Notes under the pieces: generated by a model | What the model was told of the DNA's origin: nothing | Seen by the model: only the letters and a program-made list of their open reading frames with translations | Database searches by the model: none | Shown here: in pieces, positions 12,824 to 40,713 of the stretch | Layout of the letters: each line of letters opens with the position of its first letter | Position numbering within the stretch: the first letter of the stretch is position 1 | Assembly: GCF_050320075.1 (NCBI RefSeq) | Contig: NZ_CP190018.1 | Strand: one strand, 5' to 3' | Source of the DNA: Escherichia coli | GTDB taxonomy: Bacteria; Pseudomonadota; Gammaproteobacteria; Enterobacterales; Enterobacteriaceae | Length of the DNA stretch: 64,000 nt | Program-made: the position numbers and the translations under genes

Positions 12824-13468
12824 ATGATGCAACCATCAATCAAACCTGCTGACGAGCATTCAGCTGGCGATATCATTGCGCGCATCGGCAGCCTGACGCG
12901 TATGCTGCGCGACAGTTTGCGGGAGCTGGGGCTGGATCAGGCCATTGCCGAAGCGGCGGAAGCCATCCCCGATGCGCGCGATCGTTTGTACTATGTTGTG
13001 CAGATGACCGCCCAGGCTGCGGAGCGGGCGCTGAACAGTGTTGAGGCGTCACAACCGCATCAGGATCAAATGGAGAAATCAGCAAAAGCGTTAACCCAAC
13101 GTTGGGATGACTGGTTTGCCGATCCGATTGACCTTGCCGACGCCCGAGAACTGGTAACAGATACGCGGCAATTTCTGGCAGATGTCCCCGCGCATACCAG
13201 CTTTACTAACGCGCAGCTGCTGGAAATCATGATGGCGCAGGATTTTCAGGATCTCACCGGACAGGTCATTAAGCGGATGATGGATGTCATTCAGGAGATC
13301 GAACGTCAGTTGCTGATGGTGCTGTTGGAAAACATCCCCGAACAGGAGTCGCGTCCAAAACGTGAAAACCAGAGTTTGCTTAATGGACCTCAGGTCGATA
13401 CCAGCAAAGCCGGTGTGGTAGCCAGTCAGGATCAGGTGGACGATTTGTTGGATAGTCTTGGATTTTGA
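12824..13468 (+). CDS. cheZ: CheY-phosphate phosphatase CheZ
   Basis: 214 aa from [18 protein letters not shown]...; ORF-track start at 12794 is an upstream extension. Confidence 0.95.
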
Positions 13469-20994: not shown

Positions 20995-22095
20995 ATGCGA
21001 GGGAAAAAACGCATTGGGTTAATGTTTTTGCTGATAGCGGTTGTGGTTGGTGGCGGCGGGTTATTGCTGGCGCAAAAAGCCTTACATAAAACGTCGGATA
21101 CAGCATTTTGCCTTTCCTGCCACTCGATGAGTAAACCTTTTGAGGAATATCAGGGAACTGTCCACTTTTCGAACCAGAAAGGGATACGTGCGGAATGTGC
21201 CGATTGCCATATTCCAAAGTCAGGGATGGATTATTTATTTGCTAAATTAAAAGCATCTAAAGATATTTATCATGAATTTGTTAGCGGCAAAATAGACAGT
21301 GACGATAAGTTCGAAGCGCATCGTCAGGAAATGGCCGAAACAGTATGGAAAGAATTAAAAGCCACTGACTCTGCAACGTGCCGTAGTTGCCATTCTTTTG
21401 ATGCCATGGATATTGCCTCGCAAAGTGAATCTGCGCAGAAAATGCATAACAAAGCACAAAAGGGCGGCGAAACCTGTATCGATTGTCATAAAGGCATTGC
21501 TCATTTTCCGCCAGAAATAAAAATGGATGACAACGCGGCGCATGAGCTGGAAAGTCAGGCCGCTACTTCAGTGACTAATGGCGTACATATTTATCCTTTC
21601 AAAACTTCTCGCATAGGCGAGCTGGCTACCGTGAATCCTGGTACCGATCTCATCGTCGTTGATGCCAGTGGCAAACAGCCGATCGTTCTGTTGCAGGGTT
21701 ATCAAATGCAGGGCAGTGAAAACACGCTCTACCTGGCGGCAGGTCAACGGCTGGCACTAGCCACATTAAGTGAAGAAGGTATCAAGGCGCTCACGGTAAA
21801 CGGGGAATGGCAGGCTGACGAATACGGCAATCAATGGCGTCAGGCGTCTTTACAGGGTGCGCTTACCGATCCCGCATTAGCGGACCGTAAACCGCTATGG
21901 CAATACGCTGAAAAACTTGACGATACCTATTGCGCTGGTTGCCATGCCCCTATTGCCTCCGACCATTACACCGTCAATGCATGGCCGTCCATTGCCAAAG
22001 GAATGGGGGCGCGAACCAGCATGAGCGAAAACGAACTGGACATTTTGACGCGGTACTTCCAGTACAACGCCAAAGATATTACCGAGAAACAGTGA
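20995..22095 (+). CDS. torY: Pentahaem c-type cytochrome TorY (TMAO/N-oxide reductase system III)
   Basis: 366 aa with five CxxCH haem-binding motifs (CLSCH, CADCH, CRSCH, CIDCH, CAGCH); NapC/NirT-like. Confidence 0.93.
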
Positions 22096-24585: not shown

Positions 24586-26731
<2,146 letters not shown>

Positions 26732-26783
26732 ACAAACTCCCTTTAAAATGGCCGATGGCACCTGTCTATGATAGGTGGCAAAT

Positions 26784-27130
26784 TCAGAAAAGAGAAGATT
26801 GCTGTGGAATAGCCGGAACTGCTCCGATCTCTGGAAGCGTTTTACGTAAGTCTTCCCACAGGGTATGTACCAGTTCCGGGGCCTGGGCAATATCTGGCGT
26901 ATGTAAAAAAAGATAAGGCGTAGTGGTCTGATGCCACTGCGCTAATTTTTGTAACCAGACCTGAAATAATTCCCGGTTTTGCGTCATATCATCACTACCG
27001 ATAAAACGGATCAGCGGATTTGTCGCCGTCAGTACAGCATGTACCGGAACTTTAGGTTTTTTTCGTTGAGCGTCGCGAATAGCTTCACTGTGTGGACGTG
27101 CTGCATGAACCGGGCGGCTGTCTAAAATCA
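26784..27130 (-). pseudogene. yecE: yecE 3' fragment (C-terminal ~114 codons), separated from its 5' half by a 12.2 kb insertion
   Basis: Translation ...ILDSRPVHAARPHSEAIRDAQRKK...QQSSLF continues in frame from the 5' fragment at 39369 once the insert is removed; the ORF-track start at 27134 is a TTG artefact. Confidence 0.85.
27124..27130. repeat. attL core (AAAATCA) of the yecE insertion
   Basis: Identical 7-mer at 39363-39369; left flank joined to right flank restores yecE codons ...NRVILDSR... Confidence 0.65.
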
Positions 27131-27189
27131 TCAAGGTCTAAATGCACTACATGGGCACCTAAACATATACATGTGATGTTGAGGTGTTA

Positions 27190-27210
27190 GAAAGGGGGCT
27201 GTTCAGCCCC
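27190..27210 (-). terminator. Rho-independent terminator for the 306-aa leftward gene
   Basis: On minus strand GGGGCTGAACAGCCCC hairpin followed by CTTTCT, immediately after the stop at 27219. Confidence 0.7.
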
Positions 27211-27218
27211 TGATAGAC

Positions 27219-28139
27219 TTAGTAATTATCCCTGACAACTTCATCATATCTTTCAATGAAGGTTAGTTGTTTATTACTTCCATTATAACTATCAACCCAT
27301 TTGTCTACAGCTTCATCGAATAGAAATAAAAAATCCGTATAATTTATATACACTACATTATCATAATATTGGGTTGGGTGACCTCTTTTACATACAGCAA
27401 TACTAAGACGTCTTTCTTTACCCTGAGTAACTTTGTGTGAATTAAGATTAGTCATGTGAAGCAATGAGTTCCTTAATTCATATAATTCGTCGGAAGTTAC
27501 TCCAAGTTTTTGTATATCTGAGTATGTATCTAACCAATTTTGAAAGACTCTTCTTTTGTTTCCAAACTCAATATAAGCTATAGTATCAATAAATGACATT
27601 AATAGCTTGAAGCTTGACAAGTAATGTTTTTTGTTAAACAGAAGCTTTATTGGTTCCATATGGTCATCATTAAGAAGTTCCTTAATGTGAAAACCATCAT
27701 CTTTCATATACTTATCAAGATAGTCTGGCAAGTCTTTTACACCTTCAATGTGATAGTTAGGTGTGTGCTTATTCCTTAATTGCTCTGACATTGATAACTG
27801 AATATCATATTGTAATTTGCCTTTAACAACGGGGGTGACTATAGCTAAAGGGTTTTCAGGTGCATTTTGAGCTTCTAATGCTAATTCAAACGGAGCAAAA
27901 GGATTACCAATCCGCAAATTTGCATTATATCTTTCAAGTGTCAATTTGTCATTTTCTAAAACAGAAGGGTGTATCCCATAAAATAAACGACAAGAAGCTA
28001 AGTCAATCTCCAAATTCCGCTTTAAAAAATCTAATTTTTGCGCATCATCGCCATCATGTTCGTGAGGTACTATTCCGGCATGTGTGATATGAACTCCATC
28101 AGGACTAAAGCAAAATATGTTGTAGATAATCTCTTTCAT
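27219..28139 (-). CDS. Hypothetical 306-aa protein, AT-rich, counter-oriented accessory gene in the element; has one R-x4-H (RNSLLH) motif
   Basis: Uninterrupted ORF with ATG start, own terminator, transcribed opposite to the rest of the element; no family recognised by eye. Confidence 0.6.
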   Translation of the reverse strand: MKEIIYNIFCFSPDGVHITHAGIVPHEHDGDDAQKLDFLKRNLEIDLASCRLFYGIHPSVLENDKLTLERYNANLRIGNPFAPFELALEAQNAPENPLAIVTPVVKGKLQYDIQLSMSEQLRNKHTPNYHIEGVKDLPDYLDKYMKDDGFHIKELLNDDHMEPIKLLFNKKHYLSSFKLLMSFIDTIAYIEFGNKRRVFQNWLDTYSDIQKLGVTSDELYELRNSLLHMTNLNSHKVTQGKERRLSIAVCKRGHPTQYYDNVVYINYTDFLFLFDEAVDKWVDSYNGSNKQLTFIERYDEVVRDNY

Positions 28140-28400
28140 ACCATTCTAACCTTCAGTGAAAATAAAGTTTTAACTATCATTAGATTATGAACAATCACAA
28201 TTGGCCTGTAAATAACAGGGCATAAACAGGTTCGTTTAGCTTGATTTTATCACTATAACTGTCTGATTTAACGGTAACTCACCAAGTATACACACAGTAA
28301 TTACACAATCCTGTTATTATGTAACTTATTGAAATATATAAATAATTTTTACATTCTTTGTTTGGGGTAAGCTGTGTAATGTTAGTCGTCCCTCTCCAGA

Positions 28401-28414
28401 CACTATATATAGTG
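28401..28414. promoter_or_regulatory. Perfect 14-bp palindrome CACTATATATAGTG in the 1.1 kb ORF-free spacer
   Basis: Read directly; embedded in a run of TATATA-containing repeats. Confidence 0.4.
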
Positions 28415-29102
28415 CTATATACAGGACTATATAACGATATATAGATGTTTGGTCACATGGTATAACTATCAAACCACTTAACGATTTCCTACGTGAAAGT
28501 TAGAAAGTGATAGTTATAGTTACCTTGTCAAATCTTCGTAGTCCCTTCTTAAAAAATCGTGAAAGGTAATCTTGTTATCTATACAGAATCTACGTAGATG
28601 CTTCTTAGTGCGCAAAACAGCTATTATGTTAAAAACGCACTGTATACGTATCAGTACTGATTTATAAGGGTTTTGTGTATTGGCTGATAAGAGGCTATAC
28701 AGCACCTTGAGAGCATGTCTTCTAAGTCATTGACATATAAGGTCACAGAAGTTTGTAGCTGTTACAGAGAAAACTGGATAGGACTTCACAGAACTATAAA
28801 ATGTTACAGCTATTGATAGGTGAAATCTTCTTGATAGATGCTTTGAAGTGTGGTGAAGGCTTTTTGAGGTGGGGCTAAACAGATATCATGAAGAAAGTCA
28901 ATAGTTGATTCGGTTTATCGAATAAACCTCATAGATATTTTAAAATTCTGCAAAGGGGGTCACATAGCTGGTGTGACGGGTACTTAGCAGCTACAGACAT
29001 CTATCAGATATTTTTGAAGATTTTTAGAAGGGGAATTTGAAGAGGGGCTACTACGATTTTATAAAAATTTTCAGATTCTGAAAAGTTACTGTACAGAATA
29101 TG

Positions 29103-29127
29103 TACAGATATCTTTAAAGTATCTGTA
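29103..29127. promoter_or_regulatory. Inverted repeat TACAGATA-N9-TATCTGTA (candidate operator) upstream of the MTase gene
   Basis: Read directly; adjacent direct repeats GTACAGA(A/T)AT and GATATCC x2. Confidence 0.4.
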
Positions 29128-29249
29128 AAAACTTTTAAGATAAAAGATAGATATCCCAGAAAGGATATCCGTTTAGAAAACCTATTAAGTATCTCTTAAA
29201 AGAGAGTAAACCTTGTCAAGAGTGATTGCAATAAAAATTTTTATTTCTT

Positions 29250-29912
29250 ATGTCAATTGAGTGTATTTTAATCGGGAAACATCATGGGGGTTCTGATTAC
29301 TGGAGAACTCCATTTTTGTTATTTAAGAACTTACACCGTGAATTTATTTTCAGTCTGGATGGTGCTGCAACTAAGCACGATACGTTATTACCCCGCTTTA
29401 CGGATGATATTCACAATCAGTCATGGGATGGTGAACGGGTATTCTGTAACCCACCATACAGCGACACTAAAACATTCCTCGTAAAAGCGTCTGAGGCAGA
29501 TTTATCGGTATTCCTGATACCGTACCGACCCCAAACCATATACTGGCTTAAGCACATCTTCACAAACCCGCTTTGCCATGAAATCCGTATTCTTCATCGT
29601 GCAGTTAAATACCTTCCACCAGCAGGGCATAACAGGCTTACTATTAGGTCGCCGTTTCCAAGTGCAGTCGTTGTTTTTAAAAAAGAACCACGCAGGCATG
29701 AAATTACGCAGATGGTTTGCTGTGCTGATACATTGCTACCGTTAACCATCATTAACAGAGGAGGCTTGAGAGGAAGGCCCACCATTTACCCACCTGAGAC
29801 GCTCGACAGCTTCATAAAACTATACAGGCAAGGCAAACCCATTAAGTGCATTGCAGATGCTCTCAGAATGCCTCTGAGCACGTCATACAGGATTGCTCAA
29901 AGGTTGAGCTAG
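29250..29912 (+). CDS. Phage-type DNA N6-adenine methyltransferase (Dam family) with C-terminal HTH-like tail
   Basis: SDYWRTPF...FSLDGAA...FCNPPY motifs typical of phage Dam MTases; C-terminal GRP...IADALRMPLSTSYRIAQRL resembles an HTH. Confidence 0.75.
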   Translation: MSIECILIGKHHGGSDYWRTPFLLFKNLHREFIFSLDGAATKHDTLLPRFTDDIHNQSWDGERVFCNPPYSDTKTFLVKASEADLSVFLIPYRPQTIYWLKHIFTNPLCHEIRILHRAVKYLPPAGHNRLTIRSPFPSAVVVFKKEPRRHEITQMVCCADTLLPLTIINRGGLRGRPTIYPPETLDSFIKLYRQGKPIKCIADALRMPLSTSYRIAQRLS

Positions 29913-30052
29913 AATTCTCATAAATATGGTCATTTACAAGACAGGTGATTTAGATATTAAGAGGTATCCCTGTGAACAATAAATGACCAATCAGTAATTA
30001 TCCTGTGAAATAATTGTTGCAATTTATAATCACACATGGTATAGTTTCATAG

Positions 30053-30197
30053 TGGACTGATAAAAAAGTTCATGTCTTGAAGTGGTAACACTTGGGGAGG
30101 TGTCAGATGATTGACGTATATTAACCTCTCATTCATGGTAATACCTCAGCGTTTTAATCATCGTACTGTTTCAGGCATGGACTTCTTTATCAGTCCA
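30053..30197. promoter_or_regulatory. 145-bp segment bracketed by a perfect 12-bp inverted repeat (TGGACTGATAAA / TTTATCAGTCCA) upstream of the initiator gene
   Basis: Read directly at 30053-30064 and 30186-30197. Confidence 0.4.
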
Positions 30198-30276
30198 TCA
30201 ATCCCCCAGATATTTTAATCACACAGGCTAATCGGTTTTATCCGGTTGGCCTTTTCACGTATGAGGTAATTTATGA

Positions 30277-31245
30277 ATGAAAAAAGAAACTAATGCTTTT
30301 ATTATGGTAGATAAACGAGTTGCACAATTCCCTAAAACATTAAAGCCAATTGACCGCTTGGTATATTTCACTATGCTGGATGGTGCTGATTATTACGAAT
30401 CTAAGTTCGGGAGATACGCACCAAGTATTGACTATTTGATGGTTATGTCTGGTGCTACACGTAATACAGTTATTGATTCACTTAAGAGACTTGAGTCACA
30501 CAGACTTATCGAAAAGACCAATGTAAAGGGTCAGCAAAGTATTTTTAAAGTATTCACGTTGGATGAGCGTCCAGAGGTCTTATCAGAACCTACCCTTGAT
30601 GAGCGTCGTAGAGCTAAATTATCAGGTCAACCAGAATCTGACAGTAACCCAACCAAAAATTGGTTACCTACCCAACCAGAATTTGGTTACCTACCTAACC
30701 AGAATTTGGTTACATGTAATACTGAATATAAAGACAAAAATATAAATACTGAAGAAGAAAGACTAAAAGGGAACTTTGAAGAAGAATCTCTTAAGAAGGG
30801 AGCTTCGCTCTGTGATTCACATGAATGTGATATTAAAGAAGATGACTTTCTTTCTTTGGATGAATTAAATGATTTTCTCTCTATGAATGAATCTGGCCTT
30901 GATAGTGAAGCTACTAAAGAGGCTGTTAAAAAGGAAGATAAAATCTCTGATGTGAATATCGATAGTGACCATAAAAACACACAGTGCCCCGCCACTGATG
31001 ATGAGATGGACCCCTTCGATGATTACCTTGATGAAGAGTCAGAGCGTGAAAAAGCCATTAAGAGGGTAGAGAAGAAAAAGAGATTCGAGCTTGCAAGACA
31101 AAAGAACAAAGTATCGGGTTTAGACCCATTCGATGACAGTGACGATGATGACTTTTCTTTCACACCAAGAAAGAAACAAACTCAGGATGACAAGAAGCAA
31201 AAAATTAAACCGAAGATGTATTTTGCTGGTGGAGGTATGCGCTAA
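30277..31245 (+). CDS. Putative replication initiator / replisome organiser (N-terminal winged-helix-like domain, acidic C-terminal tail)
   Basis: N-terminus resembles phage initiator DNA-binding domains; tandem iterons inside the ORF; highly acidic low-complexity C-terminal half. Confidence 0.55.
   Translation: MKKETNAFIMVDKRVAQFPKTLKPIDRLVYFTMLDGADYYESKFGRYAPSIDYLMVMSGATRNTVIDSLKRLESHRLIEKTNVKGQQSIFKVFTLDERPEVLSEPTLDERRRAKLSGQPESDSNPTKNWLPTQPEFGYLPNQNLVTCNTEYKDKNINTEEERLKGNFEEESLKKGASLCDSHECDIKEDDFLSLDELNDFLSMNESGLDSEATKEAVKKEDKISDVNIDSDHKNTQCPATDDEMDPFDDYLDEESEREKAIKRVEKKKRFELARQKNKVSGLDPFDDSDDDDFSFTPRKKQTQDDKKQKIKPKMYFAGGGMR
30641..30714. repeat. Tandem 23-bp direct repeats (iterons) inside the initiator ORF: TTGGTTACCTACC(C/T)AACCAGAAT
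   Basis: Two full units at 30660-30682 and 30683-30705 (1 mismatch) plus flanking partial units. Confidence 0.8.
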
Positions 31246-31541
31246 TGAAAGAATATCACGGTGAAAAGAGATACAAAGATTACCTGTTAAAGCGTTATAG
31301 CATTTCTCGTGAAGGCCACTTAATGAAGGATACTCACGGGGAAGTTTACCGGATTAGACCGAAGAAAGAAGGGAGGGATTATTTCTTTTACGATGGTGTG
31401 ACAGATTTAAAGATTGATGCTTTGAAGTTTGCGGCGCTGTATCATTATGATATCTGGGACTCAGTCCACCAGCTACGATTAAAAGACGGTGACCCCGGTA
31501 ATCTGAGGGCCACCAATATTATCAAGGGAAAGTGCCGGTAA
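31245..31541 (+). CDS. Small HNH_3/NUMOD4-like protein (98 aa), catalytic His not evident
   Basis: YSISREGHLMKDTHGEVYRIRPKKEGRDYFFYDG...LKDGDPGNLRATN resembles NUMOD4/HNH_3 layout; overlaps initiator stop. Confidence 0.45.
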   Translation: MKEYHGEKRYKDYLLKRYSISREGHLMKDTHGEVYRIRPKKEGRDYFFYDGVTDLKIDALKFAALYHYDIWDSVHQLRLKDGDPGNLRATNIIKGKCR

Positions 31542-31864
31542 GTCCACCAGCTATTTATTTATTGAAATCTCTATCTCAACACGAAGAAGTTTAAGTCGAA
31601 TTGTAAGCTTTGTCTTTTTTGTAATGACTCGATTCATAACGCAAAACACCAATAGCACAATAAATACCGCAAAGCCCAACGAGCTAAAACGATGAGATTC
31701 AATAATTGCTGTGAAAAAATCATGCATTAATTTTCCTTTTGCGAAAGGAAACAGCACCTGTATCAGCCCCTATAACCATAATATCATGTAAATGAGATGT
31801 TGACAATATGTTAAATAAATGTTATGATTGTAGTATGAGTAAGAGATTTAAGGAGATTTTTACA

Positions 31865-32155
31865 ATGACTCACACAGTTACGCGCCTTTTGCCAGAGGCA
31901 TTTGAACGACTGGCAGCAATCAAAGCCAAATATCCCGATATGAAGCACACAGCGCTTGTTGGAGAGCTTTTAAAAGAGTCGGTAACCCTGACCCCTTTCG
32001 ATAACGTTAAGGGCGTTGCAGAGGGTTCTAAGGCCATCAGAATCACAACGGACCAACTGGAACTACTCAAAGCACAGTCCGCAGTAGCAGGTTGCTCAAT
32101 GATTCAGGTGTTAAGCGCAAAGGTCCATCAATTAGCGGATAGGCTGGGGGTTTAA
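31865..32155 (+). CDS. Hypothetical small protein (96 aa)
   Basis: AAGGAG RBS 8 nt upstream of ATG at 31865; ORF-track start at 31808 is probably an extension; stop overlaps next gene (TAATG). Confidence 0.5.
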   Translation: MTHTVTRLLPEAFERLAAIKAKYPDMKHTALVGELLKESVTLTPFDNVKGVAEGSKAIRITTDQLELLKAQSAVAGCSMIQVLSAKVHQLADRLGV

Positions 32156-32580
32156 TGCTATGCACATTTGATTATCATGCGTTTTATCGCCATAGAGGCC
32201 ACCTTGTCCGTGAGAATAGCGGAACATGGAAAGATTTAACTCGTAATGCTGAACCCTTCACACACCAGCAATTAAAATCCCGCTTCTCCAGATGGAAGAA
32301 TGCACCAGCAGATACTGGTGATTTTGAGATTATCCATACCTTCGATTATGCCTCAGAAGATGACCTTCACGATGCAATTAAGCTGATTGAAGACTTCAAT
32401 ACCTCAGAAGATGTGGATGGTGACAAATATAAATCCCGTGGTAACCGCTATAACCGTGATGATATCACTCAGGCCATAAATGCTGGTCAATCTCAGCGAT
32501 ACATTACAGAAAAATATGGTATTTCACGGAGACAGTATTTCTACGTTAAATCATTGATTAATAAAGACAATTCAAAATAA
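32155..32580 (+). CDS. Hypothetical protein (141 aa) with C-terminal HTH-like segment
   Basis: Translationally coupled to upstream gene; C-terminus ...QSQRYITEKYGISRRQYFYVK resembles a Hin/resolvase-type HTH. Confidence 0.5.
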   Translation: MLCTFDYHAFYRHRGHLVRENSGTWKDLTRNAEPFTHQQLKSRFSRWKNAPADTGDFEIIHTFDYASEDDLHDAIKLIEDFNTSEDVDGDKYKSRGNRYNRDDITQAINAGQSQRYITEKYGISRRQYFYVKSLINKDNSK

Positions 32581-32741
32581 CCATCTCAGTAACGGTAGAA
32601 TGCACTTTACAGGCAGAGTTGCACCTTAATTTGATAAATTACCTTACCAGCCAGTGCAACTCCCTCTGTAACCCGCATGATTACTGGTCTCAGAATGGCT
32701 ATTTTAAGAGGTCTGAGATGTGTTTTGTAGGAGATTTAAAA

Positions 32742-33065
32742 ATGAACAACTTCCCATTACAGATTTTCGTTGATAACGACACCGCTATGATGGTGCAAAG
32801 CTTCAGTGATGCAGGTATTAGCATTGATTTTGACAGGCTGTTAAAGCTAATGGCTGATAATGAAGAAAACGTCTCTGACTTTATTCACTCGGTGGAGTTT
32901 AACGAGCCTCGAATGATGTTACCAATTACAGACAGTAATATGAAAAGATTGGTTATTGAGCAAACGAACAAATACAGTATTTCCCCAGAGCAATTTTTGA
33001 AAGGTGCTGTGACAATCCTGTACAGCGATAATATTTTGGTTACGGATTCCGTGAGGGTTCACTAA
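32742..33065 (+). CDS. Hypothetical small protein (107 aa)
   Basis: GGAG-type RBS before ATG at 32742; ORF-track start at 32619 is probably an extension. Confidence 0.45.
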   Translation: MNNFPLQIFVDNDTAMMVQSFSDAGISIDFDRLLKLMADNEENVSDFIHSVEFNEPRMMLPITDSNMKRLVIEQTNKYSISPEQFLKGAVTILYSDNILVTDSVRVH

Positions 33066-33359
33066 TGGGCTTAATAATTGCTTGGACGTTGCTTGGCTTA
33101 TTTGTTGGTTGCTGGGTAGGCAGCACAGTAAATAGAAATTGATGTTACCAATCTGTTAAAAAGCTGTTGACAAATAACCTTAAGCATGAGATGATGGTAA
33201 TAGGGGAGAGCAACTCTCTCTTATTTTTCTTTCAAAATAATCCGATGGATGGATATTCTGAATTGGAAAGGTGCAATGCTTTTCGTCATGGCCTTTCAGT
33301 TTAGTCTGAGAGGCTATCTCAAAAAGTGCTTAATCATTCATTGAACCCTTTACAGCTTT

Positions 33360-33387
33360 GCCCTAACTCATGATTAGGGCTTTCTTT
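33360..33387 (+). terminator. Rho-independent terminator-like hairpin
   Basis: Stem GCCCTAA/TTAGGGC with 7-nt loop followed by TTTCTTT. Confidence 0.55.
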
Positions 33388-33456
33388 AAGAGTTTTTAAA
33401 CAGAGCTTTTAAAGAAAGTTTTTCCTGAAACTTCGTTAACGTTAAAGCAAACCTTC

Positions 33457-33520
33457 AAAGCCCTTCACAGATGAGGATGATTCCATGAATATCCGAATCA
33501 CCTATGTTTAGGGCTTTTTT
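33457..33520 (+). ncRNA. Long-loop hairpin with U-tract (candidate small RNA 3' end or attenuator)
   Basis: Outer stem AAAGCCCT/AGGGCTTT enclosing inner GGAT/ATCC stem, followed by T6. Confidence 0.3.
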
Positions 33521-33636
33521 CAGCTTTTAAAAAGCATACTTGGCAAACGCCTTTTAAGCCTCTTCTAAGTTCGAGGATGTCAGGTGTGCTTTTTAAAAAC
33601 TGAAACATAAATTATCTTAGAAGAGGAAAGGTATTA

Positions 33637-34341
33637 ATGGCTATCCGTGATGAAAATGAAATGATTATTGAAAACAAACCAAGTGCACTTGATATTCACG
33701 AATTAAGTTTGCGTGAATCTTTTGATAGAGCTTGGCGGGAATCACACGAAGTAAATAAAGGTCCATATATTCCACCAGAACCACTCGAGATTCCAAGAGT
33801 TGAAATTGATTTTTCTATGAACGAACGGTGTGAACTTGATTTGAAGTTGAAGCTACAACGCCGATATTTCCAAGCTATTAAAGACTCTCAAGAAGCAATG
33901 AGAAGTGTTTATGAGAAAATTCAGTCCAAGCTTGAAGACGAAATTGACGAAATGGCTATTTTGATGGAGCTTCAAACCAATCCTTATGCTTATTTCTCTC
34001 GACTAGACCGTGACGGTTGGGGGTATGACCCTGTAGAGATTGGTAAAGTGATTGCAGATTTACCAGAAGGTCAAAGGGTTATTCGTACGGAAAGGGCCAT
34101 CAGAGCGCCACATCAACTGTCTCTAATTGTTGCTGATAAATCACAAGCTGAGCTTGAAGAAATTGCCAAAGAGAAACTGATGAAAGCAAGAGAAAATGAG
34201 ATTAATTTGCTGAAATCAAGACTGGCTAAGCTGATTAGTGACCATCAAGCGCTGGCTAAGGAGTACCGTCAAGAGTTGGCACAGATTATCAGCTTCAATG
34301 ATTTTCTGAGTGTTCCACGAGAATTTAGCAAGGCTGTTTGA
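33637..34341 (+). CDS. Hypothetical protein (234 aa), charged coiled-coil-rich
   Basis: ORF with ATG and GAGG-type RBS; no family recognised. Confidence 0.55.
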   Translation: MAIRDENEMIIENKPSALDIHELSLRESFDRAWRESHEVNKGPYIPPEPLEIPRVEIDFSMNERCELDLKLKLQRRYFQAIKDSQEAMRSVYEKIQSKLEDEIDEMAILMELQTNPYAYFSRLDRDGWGYDPVEIGKVIADLPEGQRVIRTERAIRAPHQLSLIVADKSQAELEEIAKEKLMKARENEINLLKSRLAKLISDHQALAKEYRQELAQIISFNDFLSVPREFSKAV

Positions 34342-34364
34342 TTATGAATTAAAAGAGGTGATTA

Positions 34365-34583
34365 ATGTATGAAGACCGTTTGGAAACTATCAAGGCAGTT
34401 TGTGAAAAACTTAAAAACCAACCACGTAAACCAAAAACGGTAAAGAGTAAGCATCAGCCTGTCACCTCAAACAGCAAAATAAAGATTCGCAAAATTCCTT
34501 CGTGGTGCATTGACCGTATTCCGGTTGGTTCAAGAATTATTCGTGAAGATGGTGATTATCATTGGGTATCAGTTGTTGGTTAG
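34365..34583 (+). CDS. Hypothetical small basic protein (72 aa)
   Basis: RBS GAGGTG before ATG; gene-dense context. Confidence 0.45.
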   Translation: MYEDRLETIKAVCEKLKNQPRKPKTVKSKHQPVTSNSKIKIRKIPSWCIDRIPVGSRIIREDGDYHWVSVVG

Positions 34584-34671
34584 TTAGTAAAAATCTACGG
34601 GAGAGATTATCGAGTGATATCGGTAGCTCTCCCTTTTTCGTATATGAACACTTAAGAGGTGAAAAATATGA

Positions 34672-36804
34672 ATGAGCAAATTCACAGTTGATAGTTTTAT
34701 CGTTGAATTAAGCTTCAATGAAAACATTATTAAGGGCTTGCAAAGAGTTGAAAAGGCAGCTTTGCAGTCAGCACAAAGAATTGAAAAGAACCTAAATAAA
34801 GGTTTCAGGATTAATACAAAGCAGCTTGATAGTAATTTAACGGCTTCTTTAGGGCAGCTTGAAAGGAAGTTTAATAAGGCCTTTGACAAGATTGAACAGA
34901 GAGCAAGAAATACTAAAGCTTTCCAGTTTACCACCAGATTTAATGACACTGTTAATCCTCCAAAACAACCGAGACAGCCACGAATTAGCGGCAACAGAGC
35001 AATCACAGCAGCTTACTCAGCGAATATGAGCAAGCTAAAAGGCTTTGACCCTATTTTGCAGAAATACATCAAATCTCAGTTTTACGGGCTATCTGCTAAA
35101 GCCGGTTCAATGGATTCTTCAAAATTCAATGAGAAGTTAGCTCAGTTAAACGCTTCAGTCAGAGAAGCAATTGCTAAAGCCAGAGGTCATACATCCACCA
35201 GCATTAATGGTGACAGAGCAGCTAATAGTCTTGATAACCTGTCTTCAGCAGCAGTTAAAACAGCAGGTGCATTTATCTCAATGCAGGCTGTATTAGCCAG
35301 TTATCAGAAGATTATGGAAATTGGTTTACAGCGTGCAAGTGCTGAACGTTCAATTGATTTCGTATTTGATAAAGATGCAGGTCAAGTAAAAGAGTTCACA
35401 AAGTCATTAGCTCAAACAACGGGTTTAGATATCGCTGAACTGCAATCACAGTTTGCTGGTTTTGGTGCTTCAGCTAAAGAGTCTATGGGCATTCAAGGTT
35501 CTGAAGAACTTTTTAAAAATATGATTGGCTATGCTCGTCTGATGGGGAGAAGTGAAGAAGAGATTAAGCGAGCACTGACAGCATTATCACAGATGGCTGG
35601 TAAGGGTCAGGTTATGGCTGAAGAGCTTAAGGGGCAATTAGCTGAAGCTGTTCCTGGTATGGTTCAGGTATTCGCTAAAGCAACCGGAAGGAATGAACAA
35701 GAGCTATTTGATGCCATGAAGAAGGGGGCTTTAAAATCTGCCGATACTCTTCAGAAGGTCACTCAGGAACTGAATAAACAAATCACCGCTAAAGGTGGCT
35801 GGAAAGCTATTTCAGAAAGTACACAGGCACAACTAGGGAACCTGAAAAACTCTTGGAATACCACGCTTGATAGTATCTTCAGAGGTTCTGAAGATGGTCT
35901 GCAAGATTTTACAAGAAGCTTAACAACGCTTTTAAACGCTCTTGGTGGAAGTGGTAAAAGTCTTGGTGAATCTCTTGGTAGTCTCATGACTTCTATGTCA
36001 CATGGTGTCGATTCATTGACTGATATCAGCTACAGGGTAAGAGCATTCTTCGATGAGGTGACATTAGCTTACCGTTCACTAAATGACACTCAGAAAAAAA
36101 TTGTTGATGGTTTATCTGATGGGTTAATTGATGGTTTGAAGATGCTTGCCGTAGCTGTTACTGCTCAAAAGGCTGCAAATGTAGCTGGAGGCTTGTTAAA
36201 CCTTGCAAATGCTGTTACTTCATTCGGTGATGCTGTTAATAAAGCTAAAGCTGGCAAGGCTGGTTCTTCAGGTGGTGCGCTAAATAAAGTTGGTAGAGTT
36301 GTTCTTTATGCTGAGTTGGTGAACTTTGCTCTTGATAATTTAAACCCTGAAGCGGCTAAGAATCCGAACTTACACCAATCAGGTATTGGAACAGAGACAA
36401 ACTTCAACCCTGAATACAAAGGCGATTCATCTAAACCAAACCAAATTAATGATGGATGGGCTAAGATTGGTAGTTCTATCGCTGACTGGTTTAATGGTGC
36501 GGCTAATAAAATTGCTAACTTCCAAGACCCGATGAATAACTTTGTTAATAACACACAATCAACTCCACCAGCTATCACAGGTGACATGGTTAATAGCAAT
36601 GCTCAACTTGCTATGGCTGTATCAGAGTTAGGAAGAAAGGTAGACGCTTTAACAGTAGAAGCTAAGAAGCCTTTATCAGTTAATATCAAAGGTGAAGCAA
36701 TTGTTAGACCGGATGAACCAGCTTTCTTTACTTTCAATCAATCAGCTAATGACCAGTTCACGCAGGATATGCTCTTAAGTTCAAGCTATCCAGAGGAAGA
36801 ATGA
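34672..36804 (+). CDS. Tape-measure-domain-like protein (710 aa)
   Basis: Central segment ...MAEELKGQLAEAVPGMVQVFAKATGRNEQELFDAMKKGALKSADTLQKV... resembles the conserved phage tape-measure domain; Ala/Gly/Ser-rich low-complexity C-terminal part. Confidence 0.55.
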   Translation: MSKFTVDSFIVELSFNENIIKGLQRVEKAALQSAQRIEKNLNKGFRINTKQLDSNLTASLGQLERKFNKAFDKIEQRARNTKAFQFTTRFNDTVNPPKQPRQPRISGNRAITAAYSANMSKLKGFDPILQKYIKSQFYGLSAKAGSMDSSKFNEKLAQLNASVREAIAKARGHTSTSINGDRAANSLDNLSSAAVKTAGAFISMQAVLASYQKIMEIGLQRASAERSIDFVFDKDAGQVKEFTKSLAQTTGLDIAELQSQFAGFGASAKESMGIQGSEELFKNMIGYARLMGRSEEEIKRALTALSQMAGKGQVMAEELKGQLAEAVPGMVQVFAKATGRNEQELFDAMKKGALKSADTLQKVTQELNKQITAKGGWKAISESTQAQLGNLKNSWNTTLDSIFRGSEDGLQDFTRSLTTLLNALGGSGKSLGESLGSLMTSMSHGVDSLTDISYRVRAFFDEVTLAYRSLNDTQKKIVDGLSDGLIDGLKMLAVAVTAQKAANVAGGLLNLANAVTSFGDAVNKAKAGKAGSSGGALNKVGRVVLYAELVNFALDNLNPEAAKNPNLHQSGIGTETNFNPEYKGDSSKPNQINDGWAKIGSSIADWFNGAANKIANFQDPMNNFVNNTQSTPPAITGDMVNSNAQLAMAVSELGRKVDALTVEAKKPLSVNIKGEAIVRPDEPAFFTFNQSANDQFTQDMLLSSSYPEEE

Positions 36805-36967
36805 TTTCTTATATATCCGTGTGCTACGTGATTTCTTCTGAACAGATATACCCACTAAAAATTATTTTTTACGTAGCTCACGCTTAACAGAGAAAATACT
36901 TATATATCAAAGGCTTGGTTAAAAATGATTAAAATACACTAAGCCTTTGAAATCAAAGGAGAATTTA

Positions 36968-37741
36968 ATGATTTACTCTAATCAGATTCGTTACAGTGGT
37001 AAAGATGGCGTTTACTTTCATCTACAAGGCCAGCCAGATAATTTCTTGTCACTATCAGCTACTGAGAACATGGAATTTGACAGCCCTATGATGGTTACCA
37101 CTCAAAATATGCAATCAGGGCAGACTGTCACAGATAATGTAATGCGTTCACCCAGAACTATTTCAATCAGTGGTGTGGTTGTAGTTGGTGAATCCGGTAG
37201 TATCCTTATCTCAAGAGATAATAAGCTGGTGGAAAACTTCATAGACACTCTTGAAAACTGGCGTGACCAGAAGCAAATTATCTCAGTTGTCTGTAAAGAT
37301 GGTATTAAGATTGACGACTCAATTATTACAAACTTTAAAGCCTCTAAAGATGTTGGTATTGCCAATGGTCTTAGAATCCAATTAACTTTTCAGGAAATTA
37401 ACTTTAAAGCTATTGTGGGTCAGACTGATATCTCGGCTGCGACCGGAAGGACTTCTACCACAAGTGATGGTGGTGCTACCAGTAAAAAGAATACAGGGAA
37501 CACTACGACAAGCTTAGGTAACGGTATGTTGATGTGTCAGGAGCTATATAATCGCTCTACGAGTGAACTTACTAATGAGCAACTTCAAGCCCGTATCAAT
37601 TGTGGTAAAAATGTCAGAGTTAAGAACGGAAAAAGCACCTTCTCAGATGCCGCTAATGAGCAAGCTTCAAAGGTGCTTAATAATGCTGGTACAGGTAGTA
37701 CTTTGAAGAAGTATTCTGTTAATCCTAACAAGCGATACTGA
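36968..37741 (+). CDS. Hypothetical protein (257 aa), possible virion/tail-associated
   Basis: AAGGAG RBS before ATG at 36968 (ORF-track start 36947 is TTG); directly follows the tape-measure-like gene. Confidence 0.45.
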
Positions 37742-37755
37742 CGATAGAATCTCAA

Positions 37756-39279
37756 CTATATGATAACCTCATCAACATCTATTAAACCCCTCTCAGTGAC
37801 TTCAGAAAGCGACTGTATAGCCTCTGTAACGTTGTCTGAGGGGTTTTCTGTTATTGGTAAGGTGATTGCTTTACCGTTGTGAAAAGTTACTTTACAGCGA
37901 CGTTTAGCAGTATTTAAAACGACCTCTTTAACAGCACTTTTGATTATCAGTTGTGCTTCAATCCTTCCCGCCTTTGTAGTCAAGTCACAATCAGACAAAC
38001 AACCCACATCAATAGATTTAAGGCGTTGTGTCTCCTTCTCGATATCCGCATCAACTTGTGATAGCTCATTCTTTAGTTGTCTTAGTTTGCTGGTAATAGC
38101 GGACAAGTCTTCAATTTCAAGTGATAGCTGTACCAGCTTTTCAATATTGCTTGAGATGTGTTCACGGTGTAGCTTCAGTGTGTCTATGGTATTCGTCATA
38201 TCGCTATCAAATCGGTCAAGACGAGATAGCAGGGCAAGCAATGTACCATCGGTTTGCTTACGTGAAAGTCCTTTAGCACTACAACGGTTTTCATTACGAA
38301 GAGGACAACGATAAATCCCGTTTCTTGTATCGCTAAAGCCTGTGATAATCAAAGCATGACCACATTCAGAACAACGGATAACACCTTTGAAAAGATTCAC
38401 AGCCATTGGCTTATCTGAAGCAGGTTTTCTACCGTAACGAGCATATGATAGTTGTTGAACTTTGTAGAATGTTGTTTCATCTATAATTGCAGGATAATAA
38501 CCAGATATCTCCTCACAGCCTTTAGGTGTGAAGTAACCAATTACAGAGCGATTCTTCAAAAGGTCTTGCACTGAGGTTTGACCAAACTTACCTGCTTTGT
38601 ACTGGTTAAGCGTCTGGTGACCTTCAGCATTAAGAGTTCTGACAATCTCCCAGATAGACTTACCCTCTAACCGTAGCTGAAAGCACCTCTTCACAGTCTC
38701 CACTTTCTCAGGTATCACAGAGAAGCTTTTACGGTCATCATTAAGCTTAAGCCATGCAGGACAACGCCTAGAAATCTTGATACCAGCTTTAGCAGCTTCT
38801 TTCTTTGCATCCCATGCAGCTTGTATACGCTCAGCCTTACGTAATGATTCCTCATGCGCCCTTTGCATTATCAAAATGCTTTTAATCAGAGCTAACGGGT
38901 CTTTAAGAGATTCCCTTGTGTAATGTTCACCATCGGACAGGGTGACTACATCTACACCAGAGCGAAGAATGTTTCTGAGTAGCTCACTTGCTTGGTCTAC
39001 GTCCTGACGTGAGAGACGGTCTAAACTCTCGATTAGTAGTGTATCACCAGCTTTAACAAGCCCTTTCTCGATAGCGGTTAAAAAGTCACCTAAGCCACCT
39101 TTCAAGTGCTTACCAGTGAACCCGCTAACGCCTAAATCACGAAAAGTAAGGGATTCATCCAGATAGTACTCAGGATGAGCCTTAAGCCAATCAGTGACCA
39201 TCTTAGCCTGTCGTCTTAATGAGTCGCCTCTGGATTGCTTCTCAGATGAAAACCGGATGTAACTGATTGCACGTTTCAT
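37756..39279 (-). CDS. Large serine recombinase (integrase)
   Basis: 507 aa; N-terminal resolvase-type catalytic domain (YIRFSSEKQ with catalytic Ser), recombinase domain, Cys-rich zinc ribbon (CSECGH...YRCPLRNENRC), C-terminal coiled coil; adjacent to attR. Confidence 0.9.
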   Translation of the reverse strand: MKRAISYIRFSSEKQSRGDSLRRQAKMVTDWLKAHPEYYLDESLTFRDLGVSGFTGKHLKGGLGDFLTAIEKGLVKAGDTLLIESLDRLSRQDVDQASELLRNILRSGVDVVTLSDGEHYTRESLKDPLALIKSILIMQRAHEESLRKAERIQAAWDAKKEAAKAGIKISRRCPAWLKLNDDRKSFSVIPEKVETVKRCFQLRLEGKSIWEIVRTLNAEGHQTLNQYKAGKFGQTSVQDLLKNRSVIGYFTPKGCEEISGYYPAIIDETTFYKVQQLSYARYGRKPASDKPMAVNLFKGVIRCSECGHALIITGFSDTRNGIYRCPLRNENRCSAKGLSRKQTDGTLLALLSRLDRFDSDMTNTIDTLKLHREHISSNIEKLVQLSLEIEDLSAITSKLRQLKNELSQVDADIEKETQRLKSIDVGCLSDCDLTTKAGRIEAQLIIKSAVKEVVLNTAKRRCKVTFHNGKAITLPITENPSDNVTEAIQSLSEVTERGLIDVDEVII

Positions 39280-39346
39280 TGTTCACCTCACCAATAGCAG
39301 TTGGGCTTGTACCAACCCCTAGATTGTATCGCTTTAGATGGTGTAT

Positions 39347-39841
39347 TTAAACGTGTCTAATAAAAATCACCCGATTAACGCCGCGCTGATGTAAACCGCG
39401 ATTAAGCGTTTGTTCCTCTTCCCCTTTGGCGAAAAACTGTGGATGGCGGACTTCCACACCATAATTAAATTCGCCGGGAAGGGAATCGAGAAAATGCCAA
39501 AGCGCAGGCAGATCCCGTGGGCCAAATGTGGCAGGCAGTTGCAGCCAGTATTGCCCAATGCGCGGCGCTAACGGTGACATGCGGGTCAAAAATTCAGTCA
39601 CTAAATCATCGCAATGCCGTAATGCTGCCTGATGCGAAATGGTCGCCGGAAACTTAAAACAGAAGCGAAAATTATCTGTGGTCTGCTCACGCCAGCGCAG
39701 GACAACCTCGGATTTCGGCAGGGCGTAAAGCGTGGTGTTGCCCTCCACACAGTTAAAGTGGCGGGCATACTCTTCAAGGCTGGTGATCCCCAACCGCACC
39801 CATTTAGGATGCGACCATTGCGGCAGACCGATGTAAATCAT
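39347..39841 (-). pseudogene. yecE: yecE 5' fragment (N-terminal ~158 native codons, reads 6 codons into the insert before a stop)
   Basis: Translation [29 protein letters not shown]... (DUF72); 158 + 114 codons reconstitute a 272-aa protein. Confidence 0.85.
39363..39369. repeat. attR core (AAAATCA) of the yecE insertion
   Basis: Identical 7-mer to 27124-27130. Confidence 0.65.
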
Positions 39842-40404
39842 AATGCGTTGAGGATCTCTTCCACACTGCGCACACGGGCGATGCGTGGGTAGATATGGTT
39901 GATGCTGTTATTGTGCTGCTCGGCGCTGGCGGCGCTGCAGGCGTCTTCGGCAATCACCAGATTAAAACCGAGTTCCCAGGCATTGCGGGCGGTGGATTCA
40001 ACACCGATATTGGTCGAGATCCCACATAATACTATTGTATCGATACCCCGGCGGCGTAATTGCAACTCCAGATCTGTACCGTAAAACGCCCCCCACTGAC
40101 GTTTGATGATTTCGATATCACTGTCAGTTGCACCTAATGCAGCAGGATGTTGCCACCAGTTTTCGGGCAACACTTTAGCGGGGGAAGGGGCATCAACCGG
40201 CTGTTTTAATGCTTCGGCGTAATCGGCAGACCAGCCAACGCGCACCAGAAACACGGGCTGACCGCTGGCGCGAAATTTCACCGCCAGCTTCCCGGCGCGA
40301 TTAACCACCTCATCGGCAGTATGTGGACCTCCGGCAAAAGGTAAGATGCCTTCTTGTAAATCAATCACCACCAGCGCGGTGGTTTTAGCATTAAGTTCAA
40401 GCAT
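39838..40404 (-). CDS. yecD: Isochorismatase-family hydrolase YecD
   Basis: 188 aa from [20 protein letters not shown]...; overlaps yecE start (ATGA). Confidence 0.9.
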
Positions 40405-40713
40405 GATGACTCCTGACAAAACAAAATCGTGCCTCTCACCTTAATGCGATTAGCCGATGGCGGAACGACAAATTTTGTTAATTTTTATGAGTTCGGGCAA
40501 CACCTTTATAGCAAACTGGCGTAGAGTCTGATTTCAGGCCCGATATAAAGTGGTAACGAGGCGTTCCAGCGCGGGCCAGACTCTTACGGTGCGGCAGAAT
40601 TTCCAGTATAATAGCCGCCTTTTTTCATTCAGTTGTGACATACAGCTAACGCTGCGACTTGGTCACCTGCGCAGCAGGGGGCATCCGCCGGCAGCTAAGT
40701 TAAGGGATATCTC

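Follow-up and report, generated by a model that had tools for sequence, protein, structure and literature searches.

A large serine recombinase as the probable integrase of a 12.2-kb element that splits yecE in Escherichia coli

Introduction

How did a 12.2-kb island come to lie in the middle of the gene yecE, and which enzyme placed it there? The question is raised by a stretch of 64,000 nucleotides from the Escherichia coli contig NZ_CP190018.1 (assembly GCF_050320075.1), which in its whole length is called the window here. The last gene of the island encodes a protein of 507 residues that belongs to the large serine recombinases (LSRs). We consider it highly probable that this protein is a functional LSR and the integrase of a circularisable element of 12.2 kb. 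An earlier note, made from the sequence alone, had pointed to the interval 37756–39369, which comprises the island's last gene and the spacer to its right end, as an LSR with a target site inside yecE.

The gene yecE is a recognised hotspot of prophage insertion (PMC3603311), and Stx and lambdoid phages enter it via an identical attachment (att) sequence of 21 bp (PMC8112680). Computational cataloguing has yielded thousands of LSRs with predicted att sites (PMC10083194). As an enzyme, the protein described here is therefore an uncharacterised new member of a well-known class and of modest novelty alone. What raises the locus above the routine are att sites that are precisely defined by several independent lines of evidence, a natural pair of enzymes with different specificities for yecE and mdtG, and the cargo of the element.

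Results

The element is inserted at a 7-bp core within the yecE coding sequence

The island forms a low-GC block (38.6% GC versus 51.1% in the flanks), and comparison with the uninterrupted yecE of K-12 MG1655 set its limits at 27131–39369. In K-12, attB reads ...GGCGGCTGTCT AAAATCA CCCGATTAACG..., and in the window attL reads ...GGCGGCTGTCT AAAATCA TCAAGGTCTAAATGCAC... (also written ...GGCGGCTGTCT-AAAATCA-TCAAGGTCTAAATGCACTAC...) and attR reads ...AAACGTGTCTAATA AAAATCA CCCGATTAACG... (also written ...TTTAAACGTGTCTAATA-AAAATCA-CCCGATTAACG...). The identity between attL and attR is exactly the 7 bp AAAATCA, with mismatches directly on either side. The core corresponds to nucleotides 473–479 of yecE, in codon 158 of 272, and the 5' piece of the gene reads through five foreign codons to a stop.

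These junctions bear out most of what the earlier note had proposed for the site. The target lies inside the yecE coding sequence, the shared core measured only 7 bp in the K-12 alignment of both junctions (27124–27130 and 39363–39369), and the recombinase gene abuts attR, its start codon being 84 bp from the core, the last base of which is 39369. A longer identical repeat, which would have suggested a core of the tyrosine-integrase kind, was looked for in the alignment of the two junctions and is absent. The statement that integration inactivates yecE by truncation needs rewording: the gene is disrupted at codon 158, but it is split rather than truncated, a state that precise excision would reverse.

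The surroundings of the island are those of an ordinary chromosome. The left flank is core genome (otsA, flhDC, che, flhBAE, argS, torYZ and cmoBA, to yecN), and the right flank, examined to about 42.5 kb, carries yecD and aspS. The idea that the island might be the end of a larger prophage was rejected, because the left flank is core genome from flhDC through cmoAB and the right flank is yecD-aspS. Positions 26000–40500 of the window are 100% identical to E. coli YZLc1-3 (NZ_CP123240), in which PGAP labels both pieces of yecE as DUF72 pseudogene fragments.

The same junction recurs among E. coli genomes

Of 5,426 complete E. coli genomes, 279 matched a 120-bp probe across attR over its full length, and the same probe found the attB segment in 5,415. 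Genomes with an empty site match only from probe base 54 onward; this base is window position 39363 and the first of the core (9 of the 9 shown, a spread sample). Because attR recurs in 279 genomes and empty sites start at the core, the junction is not a chance alignment. The element thus occurs in roughly 5% of the complete genomes. The LSR gene was found in 296 genomes, always on the chromosome, with a single match covering at least 80% of the probe in 191. Thirteen readable copies of the element have the same attR junction, and their LSR proteins are 92–95% identical where measured; in one metagenome-derived copy, four bases of the P arm beside the core differ.

The joined attachment site occurs in a full-circle contig

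Joining the two element ends through one core copy gives an attP of about 50 bp, TGGTGTATTTAAACGTGTCTAATA-AA-AATCATCAAGGTCTAAATGCACTA (in full, TGGTGTATTTAAACGTGTCTAATAAAAATCATCAAGGTCTAAATGCACTA), to be paired with the attB in mid-yecE, ...CGGGCGGCTGTCT-AA-AATCACCCGATTAACG... Conservation among element variants extends about 24 bp to the right of the attP centre and about 45 bp to the left, where the extra length holds a promoter-like TTTAAA-17-TACAAT. The P arm is conserved among the variants, and further toward the LSR start codon the sequence diverges; at the other end, the sequence varies between variants beyond 27150.

A search of metagenome assemblies with the predicted 25-nt attP junction identified one contig of 11,473 bp (ERZ1090866 NODE_760; L010). 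This contig is a full-circle permutation of the element, the ends of which meet inside a replication-like gene. In it, one copy of the core links the P arm to the P' arm, just as in the reconstruction; yecE DNA is absent, and the LSR gene is intact, with 92.7% amino-acid identity. Such a contig can come from an excised circle, from a concatemer or from a tandem array; each of these requires site-specific recombination at the core. The exact 30-nt attP junction had no match in IMG/VR; nine IMG/VR loci found with the LSR protein were checked and carry the integrated attR junction with the yecE flank, not free forms. A Logan contig of 11,550 bp (L029) was considered as a second full circle and was discarded, as it is an integrated form cut about 30 bp into yecE on each side.

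The 507-residue protein is a large serine recombinase

The open reading frame (ORF) runs from ATG to stop over 37756–39279 on the minus strand in the ORF list. The RefSeq name of its product (WP_001685055.1) is only "recombinase family protein". Three Pfam domains matched above their curated cut-offs, namely Resolvase (PF00239, 3e-21, 76 bits with a cut-off of 23), Recombinase (PF07508, 1e-15, 58 bits) and Zn_ribbon_recom (PF13408, 4e-7, 31 bits). In an alignment with 19 homologues, down to 29% identity, the catalytic residues Y7, R9, S11, Q15, D87, R88 and R91 are invariant, as are C303, C306 and C325 of the zinc ribbon; C333 is at least 90% conserved.

The AlphaFold2 model (mean pLDDT 77.7) places, from the N-terminus, a catalytic alpha/beta domain, a long helix E (128–164) and a helical recombinase domain. 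In the C-terminal half, it predicts zinc-ribbon strands (301–324), a two-helix coiled coil (359–422, with the predicted helices 359–386 and 393–422) and a small C-terminal sheet. When the model was compared with the PDB by Foldseek, full-length serine integrase-att complexes ranked at the top (E 1e-18), followed by PhiC31, Bxb1 and the A118-type LSR-DNA complex (E 1e-18 to 1e-11 for the full-length complexes) and then by small resolvases. The catalytic fold matches the catalytic domains of gamma-delta, Sin and TP901-1 in structure comparison, and a sequence search also reached the C-terminal domain of the A118 integrase.

Since the Pfam domains, the invariant residues and the predicted fold agree, the assignment to the LSR family, already made in the earlier note, is well supported. 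The ratio of nonsynonymous to synonymous substitution rates (dN/dS) of the gene is 0.15–0.22 between element variants, indicating purifying selection. Judged from its sequence, the protein is probably active in catalysis.

The integrated gene stands directly downstream of yecD and the yecE 5' fragment on the same strand (39279–39841, minus strand), with only about 70 bp from the stop of the yecE fragment to the LSR start codon. The integrase could therefore be expressed by transcription running on from the host operon. The TTTAAA-17-TACAAT site in the P arm faces the LSR gene and might act as its promoter.

Recombinase and target change together in related elements

A sister element is inserted in mdtG (L005, NZ_CP083263, 5146–16566), and a degraded copy of it was found in another locus (L004). 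Its gene order is the same: a small recombinase, a helix-turn-helix (HTH) or replication-like protein, small ORFs, tape measure, Dit-like protein and LSR. Its core is the 4-bp CTGA. The mdtG LSR, whose protein cluster has 954 member sequences, is 67.6% identical to the yecE LSR overall, with 81% in the catalytic domain and 94% in the C-terminal tail versus 62% in the recombinase domain and 52% in the zinc-ribbon/coiled-coil region. The two LSRs thus differ mainly in the domains that recognise DNA, which is what one would expect of an enzyme that selects its own target.

The distribution outside E. coli was taken from the protein database only. A Klebsiella element of about 10.7 kb (L015/L016, 9967–20672) has a 48%-identical LSR and occupies the homologous position in yecE, in the opposite orientation and without a tape measure gene; its core is the 3-bp AGG. 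In Citrobacter freundii, an element with an 85%-identical LSR (L013, 8196–11600) again lies in yecE with the same architecture. Its P arm is common with that of the window element up to GTGTCT and has GTCC for AATA in the four bases beside the crossover, which makes its identity with the local attB look longer. The LSR of E. albertii is 90% identical in the protein database, and a 12-kb contig from a public sequencing run encodes a 50%-identical LSR together with a tape measure gene. Searching species-representative genomes with the LSR protein yielded only one contaminant-like contig of 548 bp and one 26% match. The architecture of 11.5–12.2 kb is kept in E. coli and Citrobacter and at two target genes, and relatives also carry insertion sequence (IS) insertions.

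Two further observations concern the surroundings and the variable part of these elements. A tyrosine-integrase prophage directly adjoins the C. freundii element. The attL-proximal slot is variable: in the window, it holds an ORF of 306 residues without a family match (27219–28139, minus strand), and in most relatives a small serine recombinase of about 190 residues (e.g. L003, 4591–5166).

attP symmetry places the probable crossover at the first two core bases

When the attP was scanned for dyad symmetry about every candidate dinucleotide, the best centre was AA at core positions 1–2, with 15 of 24 positions matching and a runner-up of 10. In the two related systems, too, the best centre coincides with the start of the core: CT in the 4-bp core of the mdtG element (16/24) and AG in the 3-bp core of the Klebsiella element (18/24). 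None of the three dinucleotides is palindromic. The window attP, with its 7-bp core, is an imperfect inverted repeat of about 50 bp on AA, and the related sites have the same geometry about their own dinucleotides; an outer motif ATTTnTGT, read from the sequences, occurs in both E. coli attP sites at left-arm positions 14–21 from the centre. The Klebsiella core AGG aligns to positions 1–3 of the E. coli core, and through position 2, the attR sequence of the Citrobacter copy would fit the same crossover. From these comparisons, we place the predicted crossover with moderate confidence at AA, at 27124–27125 and 39363–39364.

yecE holds two attachment sites for two classes of recombinase

The classical phage site corresponds to nucleotides ~78–96 of yecE, as read from phage records that include the duplicated host segment, and its region lies in the window at 39744–39764, within uninterrupted yecE sequence. 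The LSR site lies some 380 bp deeper in the gene. Prophages of the Stx and lambdoid phages with a tyrosine integrase share the target gene with the LSR element; however, they use a 21-bp att sequence at nucleotides ~78–96, whereas the LSR element has a 7-bp core at nucleotides 473–479 and no PF00589 protein. Because the two sites are apart, yecE holds two independent attachment sites, each for a different recombinase class.

The cargo has two tail genes resembling those of Felix O1

The coordinates of the features are collected in Table 1. No capsid, portal, terminase or lysis gene was matched in the element by PHROG, Pfam and phage-record searches, and a prophage was rejected as a description of this 12.2-kb cargo, which lacks capsid, terminase and lysis genes. 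Among the proteins of the element there is no tyrosine integrase (PF00589), no DDE transposase and, in this copy, no second recombinase.

Table 1. Features of the yecE element and its junctions in window coordinates
Feature	Position	Strand	Basis
Integrated element, 12,239 bp (one core copy), 38.6% GC	27131..39369		K-12 comparison
attL core copy AAAATCA; predicted crossover AA at 27124-27125	27124..27130		K-12 comparison
attR core copy AAAATCA; predicted crossover AA at 39363-39364	39363..39369		K-12 comparison; start of empty-site match; attP dyad
P' arm of attP, TCAAGGTCTAAATGCACTA; with core bases 3-7, the presumed right half-site of ~24 bp	27131..27149		Variant comparison; joined to the P arm in L010
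P arm of attP, CCTAGATTGTATCGCTTTAGATGGTGTATTTAAACGTGTCTAATA; inner ~24 bp, presumed left half-site	39318..39362		Kept among variants (thirteen copies); inverted-repeat partner of the P' arm, 15/24
yecE 3' fragment, without own start codon or promoter	26784..27123	-	K-12 comparison; PGAP
yecE 5' fragment, codons 1-157 and part of 158	39370..39841	-	ORF runs to a stop ending at 39347 inside the element
LSR (probable integrase) gene	37756..39279	-	ORF; Pfam; invariant residues; AlphaFold2 model; dN/dS
Promoter-like site TTTAAA-17-TACAAT in the P arm, 44 bp upstream of the LSR start codon	39323..39351	-	Consensus scan only
Non-coding stretch upstream of the methylase gene	28934..29189		Resembles two Felix O1 intergenic regions
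Dam-type N6-adenine methyltransferase, C-terminal HTH	29250..29912	+	PHROG/Pfam; PADLOC
HTH protein, presumed to serve replication of the excised element	30277..31245	+	PHROG 270/428/678, E 2e-7 to 3e-6; HTH_36 below Pfam cut-off
Tape measure protein gene, 710 residues	34672..36804	+	Homologue of the Felixounavirus tape measure protein, ~28-39% amino-acid identity; dN/dS 0.21-0.30
Dit-like tail/baseplate gene	36968..37741	+	70-73% amino-acid and 80% nucleotide identity to Felix O1 ORF68; dN/dS 0.08-0.16

At both of its ends, the tape measure gene resembles Felix O1 DNA. In Felix O1, a virulent myophage of Salmonella, ORF68 directly follows the tape measure gene (L007, 5882–8907), the same order as in the window at 34672–37741; the coliphage relatives of Felix O1 have counterparts of the Dit-like protein in the same range of 70–73% identity. 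Between element variants, the LSR, tape measure and Dit-like genes have dN/dS values of 0.08–0.30 with dS up to 1.2, again indicating purifying selection. The non-coding stretch at 28934–29189 resembles Felix O1 over 58 nt at 86% (21578–21633, including a hairpin that contains GATATC) and over 171 nt at 70% (13289–13452). Judged from the sequence, the two genomes might share a promoter, an operator, an origin or a packaging signal here. A perfect palindrome with a 7-bp stem, CTGTACAGAATATGTACAG, stands at 29089–29107, at the edge of this region, and a similar string (17/19) occurs in Felix O1 at 25708–25726. The GC content of the element, 38.6%, compares with 39.0% in Felix O1.

Of the remaining genes, the one at 30277–31245 encodes a protein with weak similarity to phage replication initiators. 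The C-terminal HTH of the methyltransferase is of the resolvase type (HTH_7/HTH_23, both below the Pfam cut-off), which is an unusual fusion. PADLOC identified no defence system in the element, only this methylase as an orphan. Eight further proteins, searched by concatenated tblastn, had no match in 50,697 phage records, and Rfam found no RNA family over 26500–40000.

Discussion

We propose that a recombinase dimer would bind the attP of about 50 bp on the circular element and a second dimer would bind attB in mid-yecE. Synapsis of attP and attB would be followed by cleavage of all four strands with a 2-nt stagger, subunit rotation and religation, the cut falling most probably at AA, core positions 1–2. 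The resulting attL and attR would share only the 7-bp core, and yecE would be interrupted in codon 158. A recombination directionality factor is presumably required for excision; by analogy with the Vibrio PLE, an infecting phage could provide it.

We assign the role of integrase to the LSR because no competing enzyme is encoded in the element, the gene is adjacent to an att site, the LSR of the sister element has changed together with its target, and the joined product was found. It is very improbable that the LSR is instead a passenger, such as a YbcK-like recombinase, an invertase or a resolvase, in an element that another enzyme inserted. Such an origin could be argued from the closest homologues in sequenced phages (36%), which are YbcK-like proteins of lambdoid coliphages and none of which is labelled as an integrase, and from the small serine recombinase near attL in many sister copies; yet the copy in the window has no second recombinase and its junctions are the same as those of copies with one. 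Moreover, tyrosine integrases and DDE transposases are absent from the element, the DNA-binding domains of the LSRs differ between the yecE and mdtG elements just as their targets do, attP resembles LSR sites in its size and in its dyad geometry, centred on the core, and an LSR gene beside an att site is the usual arrangement of an integrase. A transposase might alternatively have produced the 7-bp direct repeats, which beside an insertion formally resemble a target-site duplication rather than a recombination core. The attP contig and the single-site distribution effectively refute this origin: elements that have diverged lie at the identical position in 279 genomes, the joined form has exactly one core copy between the arms, the cores of related elements are 4 and 3 bp long, and the element contains no transposase.

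The island might also be an immobile relic, a degraded prophage that was fixed in some lineages and whose recombinase no longer acts, which we regard as quite unlikely. Only two structural genes are left in the element, several of its ORFs have no homologues, roughly one-third of carriers have a partial or interrupted LSR gene, and IS insertions occur in relatives, all of which would suit decay. Against this stand the conserved architecture in two genera and at two target genes, purifying selection on the LSR, tape measure and Dit-like genes, the attP-joined full-circle contig, and a patchy distribution, with the element in about 5% of genomes and a precise empty site in others. Nor is the island simply a remnant of Felix O1-type phages, since these are virulent and, by annotation, lack an integration module.

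Several observations weigh against the LSR being the active integrase of a mobile element. The LSR gene is not a single uninterrupted match in about one-third of the carriers; therefore, some copies are decaying. The attP was found in only one sequence, and a tandem array would give the same junction. No recombination directionality factor was identified, and in the literature searched, we found no recombination assay for this LSR or its close relatives and no mention of it. The accession WP_001685055, an N-terminal peptide and the attB string were likewise absent from that literature and from the supplements of the LSR catalogue of Durrant et al., which is a weak negative. Finally, the best dyad of the yecE attB (15/24) is centred on CT, 2 bp to the left of the core, and not on AA. 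Locating the crossover from attB symmetry failed, as this best dyad lies outside the core, and the crossover assignment consequently rests on attP geometry and the comparison across systems. CT itself cannot be the crossover because these two bases are not common to attB and attP. About AA, 6 of 9 inner positions of attB match in a count by eye, and no dyad was seen in the mdtG attB. The off-core dyad of attB is either a coincidence in coding sequence or a real asymmetry in attB binding.

With the LSR taken as the integrase, the most economical reading of the cargo, suggested by sequence comparison, would be an integrative element with dependence on, or antagonism to, virulent phages of the Felix O1 kind. 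More specifically, and with somewhat less than even confidence, we suggest that the LSR is the integration module of an undescribed family of Enterobacterales satellites or parasites of about 11.5–12 kb that exploit or block Felix O1-like myophages, an E. coli counterpart of PLE. The element might excise on phage infection, possibly with a phage-encoded directionality factor, and replicate through its own initiator; its tape measure and Dit-like proteins, together with the Felix O1-like cis sequences, might then redirect or sabotage tail assembly and gene expression of the helper. Relatives would have retargeted the same chassis to mdtG, and the Klebsiella LSR elements at the same yecE position would be more distant members. 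The element fits the outline of a satellite in being small, with its own LSR and a replication-initiator-like HTH protein, and in lacking most virion genes. The syntenic pair of tail genes, the intergenic likeness and the GC content make the link to Felix O1, and possibly dependence on such a helper, suggestive. A literature search found no paper linking Felix O1-type phages with satellites.

The locus could be of use in two respects. Since attB is present unmodified in K-12, the enzyme and its sites might plausibly serve as a portable integration tool, and because attB is a conserved coding segment (5,415/5,426 genomes), the tool would apply to wild-type E. coli, where a plasmid with attP and the LSR could give marker-free, single-copy integration apart from the classical phage att sites. 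The natural pair of yecE and mdtG enzymes offers material on how the DNA-binding domains of LSRs change specificity. Judged by its cargo, the island may represent a hitherto undescribed element with ties to phages, carried by about 5% of complete E. coli genomes; two tail genes of a strictly virulent phage are kept in it under purifying selection. Should it behave as a satellite or act against phages, satellites of lytic phages could be studied conveniently in E. coli, and there would be consequences for typing, biocontrol and therapy with Felix O1-like phages.

Comparison with known systems

The LSR shares its catalytic, recombinase and zinc-ribbon domains, with an embedded coiled coil, with the integrases of PhiC31, Bxb1, TP901-1 and A118/LI. 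Like these phage serine integrases, it is associated with a short core and an attP dyad of about 50 bp on a non-palindromic dinucleotide, without arm-type sites or long repeats. It differs from them in being only 13–19% identical in structural alignments, in its E. coli host, and in a 12-kb cargo that, apart from the two tail genes, is without virion genes and is not a temperate phage.

The closest homologues in sequenced phages, the YbcK-like recombinases of lambdoid coliphages, are of the same size and 36% identical over 97% of the length. Their records have generic or hypothetical labels only, one reading "Large serine recombinase". YbcK originates from DLP12, and YbcK-like proteins are not known to be the integrases of their lambdoid phages.

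Genes are also split by LSR elements in Bacillus, where the skin element carries SpoIVCA. The SPbeta prophage with SprA in spsM is a further example (PMC5499854). These elements likewise are LSR insertions within a coding sequence that precise excision can restore; unlike them, the window element gives no evidence of a programmed or developmental excision or of a phenotype of yecE loss.

A parallel to the element as a whole might be the PLE of Vibrio cholerae, the integrase of which is reportedly an LSR that takes its excision factor, PexA, from the lytic phage ICP1 (McKitterick and Seed 2018). The relationship between PLE and ICP1 is described in two sources (PMC9638900, PMC9410903). In both systems, an LSR integrates a small island without capsid or terminase genes that consists mostly of ORFans and appears linked to a virulent myophage, here a Felix O1-like one. 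They differ in that PLE targets an integron repeat, whereas the window element targets a protein-coding gene and carries phage tail genes, and the two integrases are likened here by description only.

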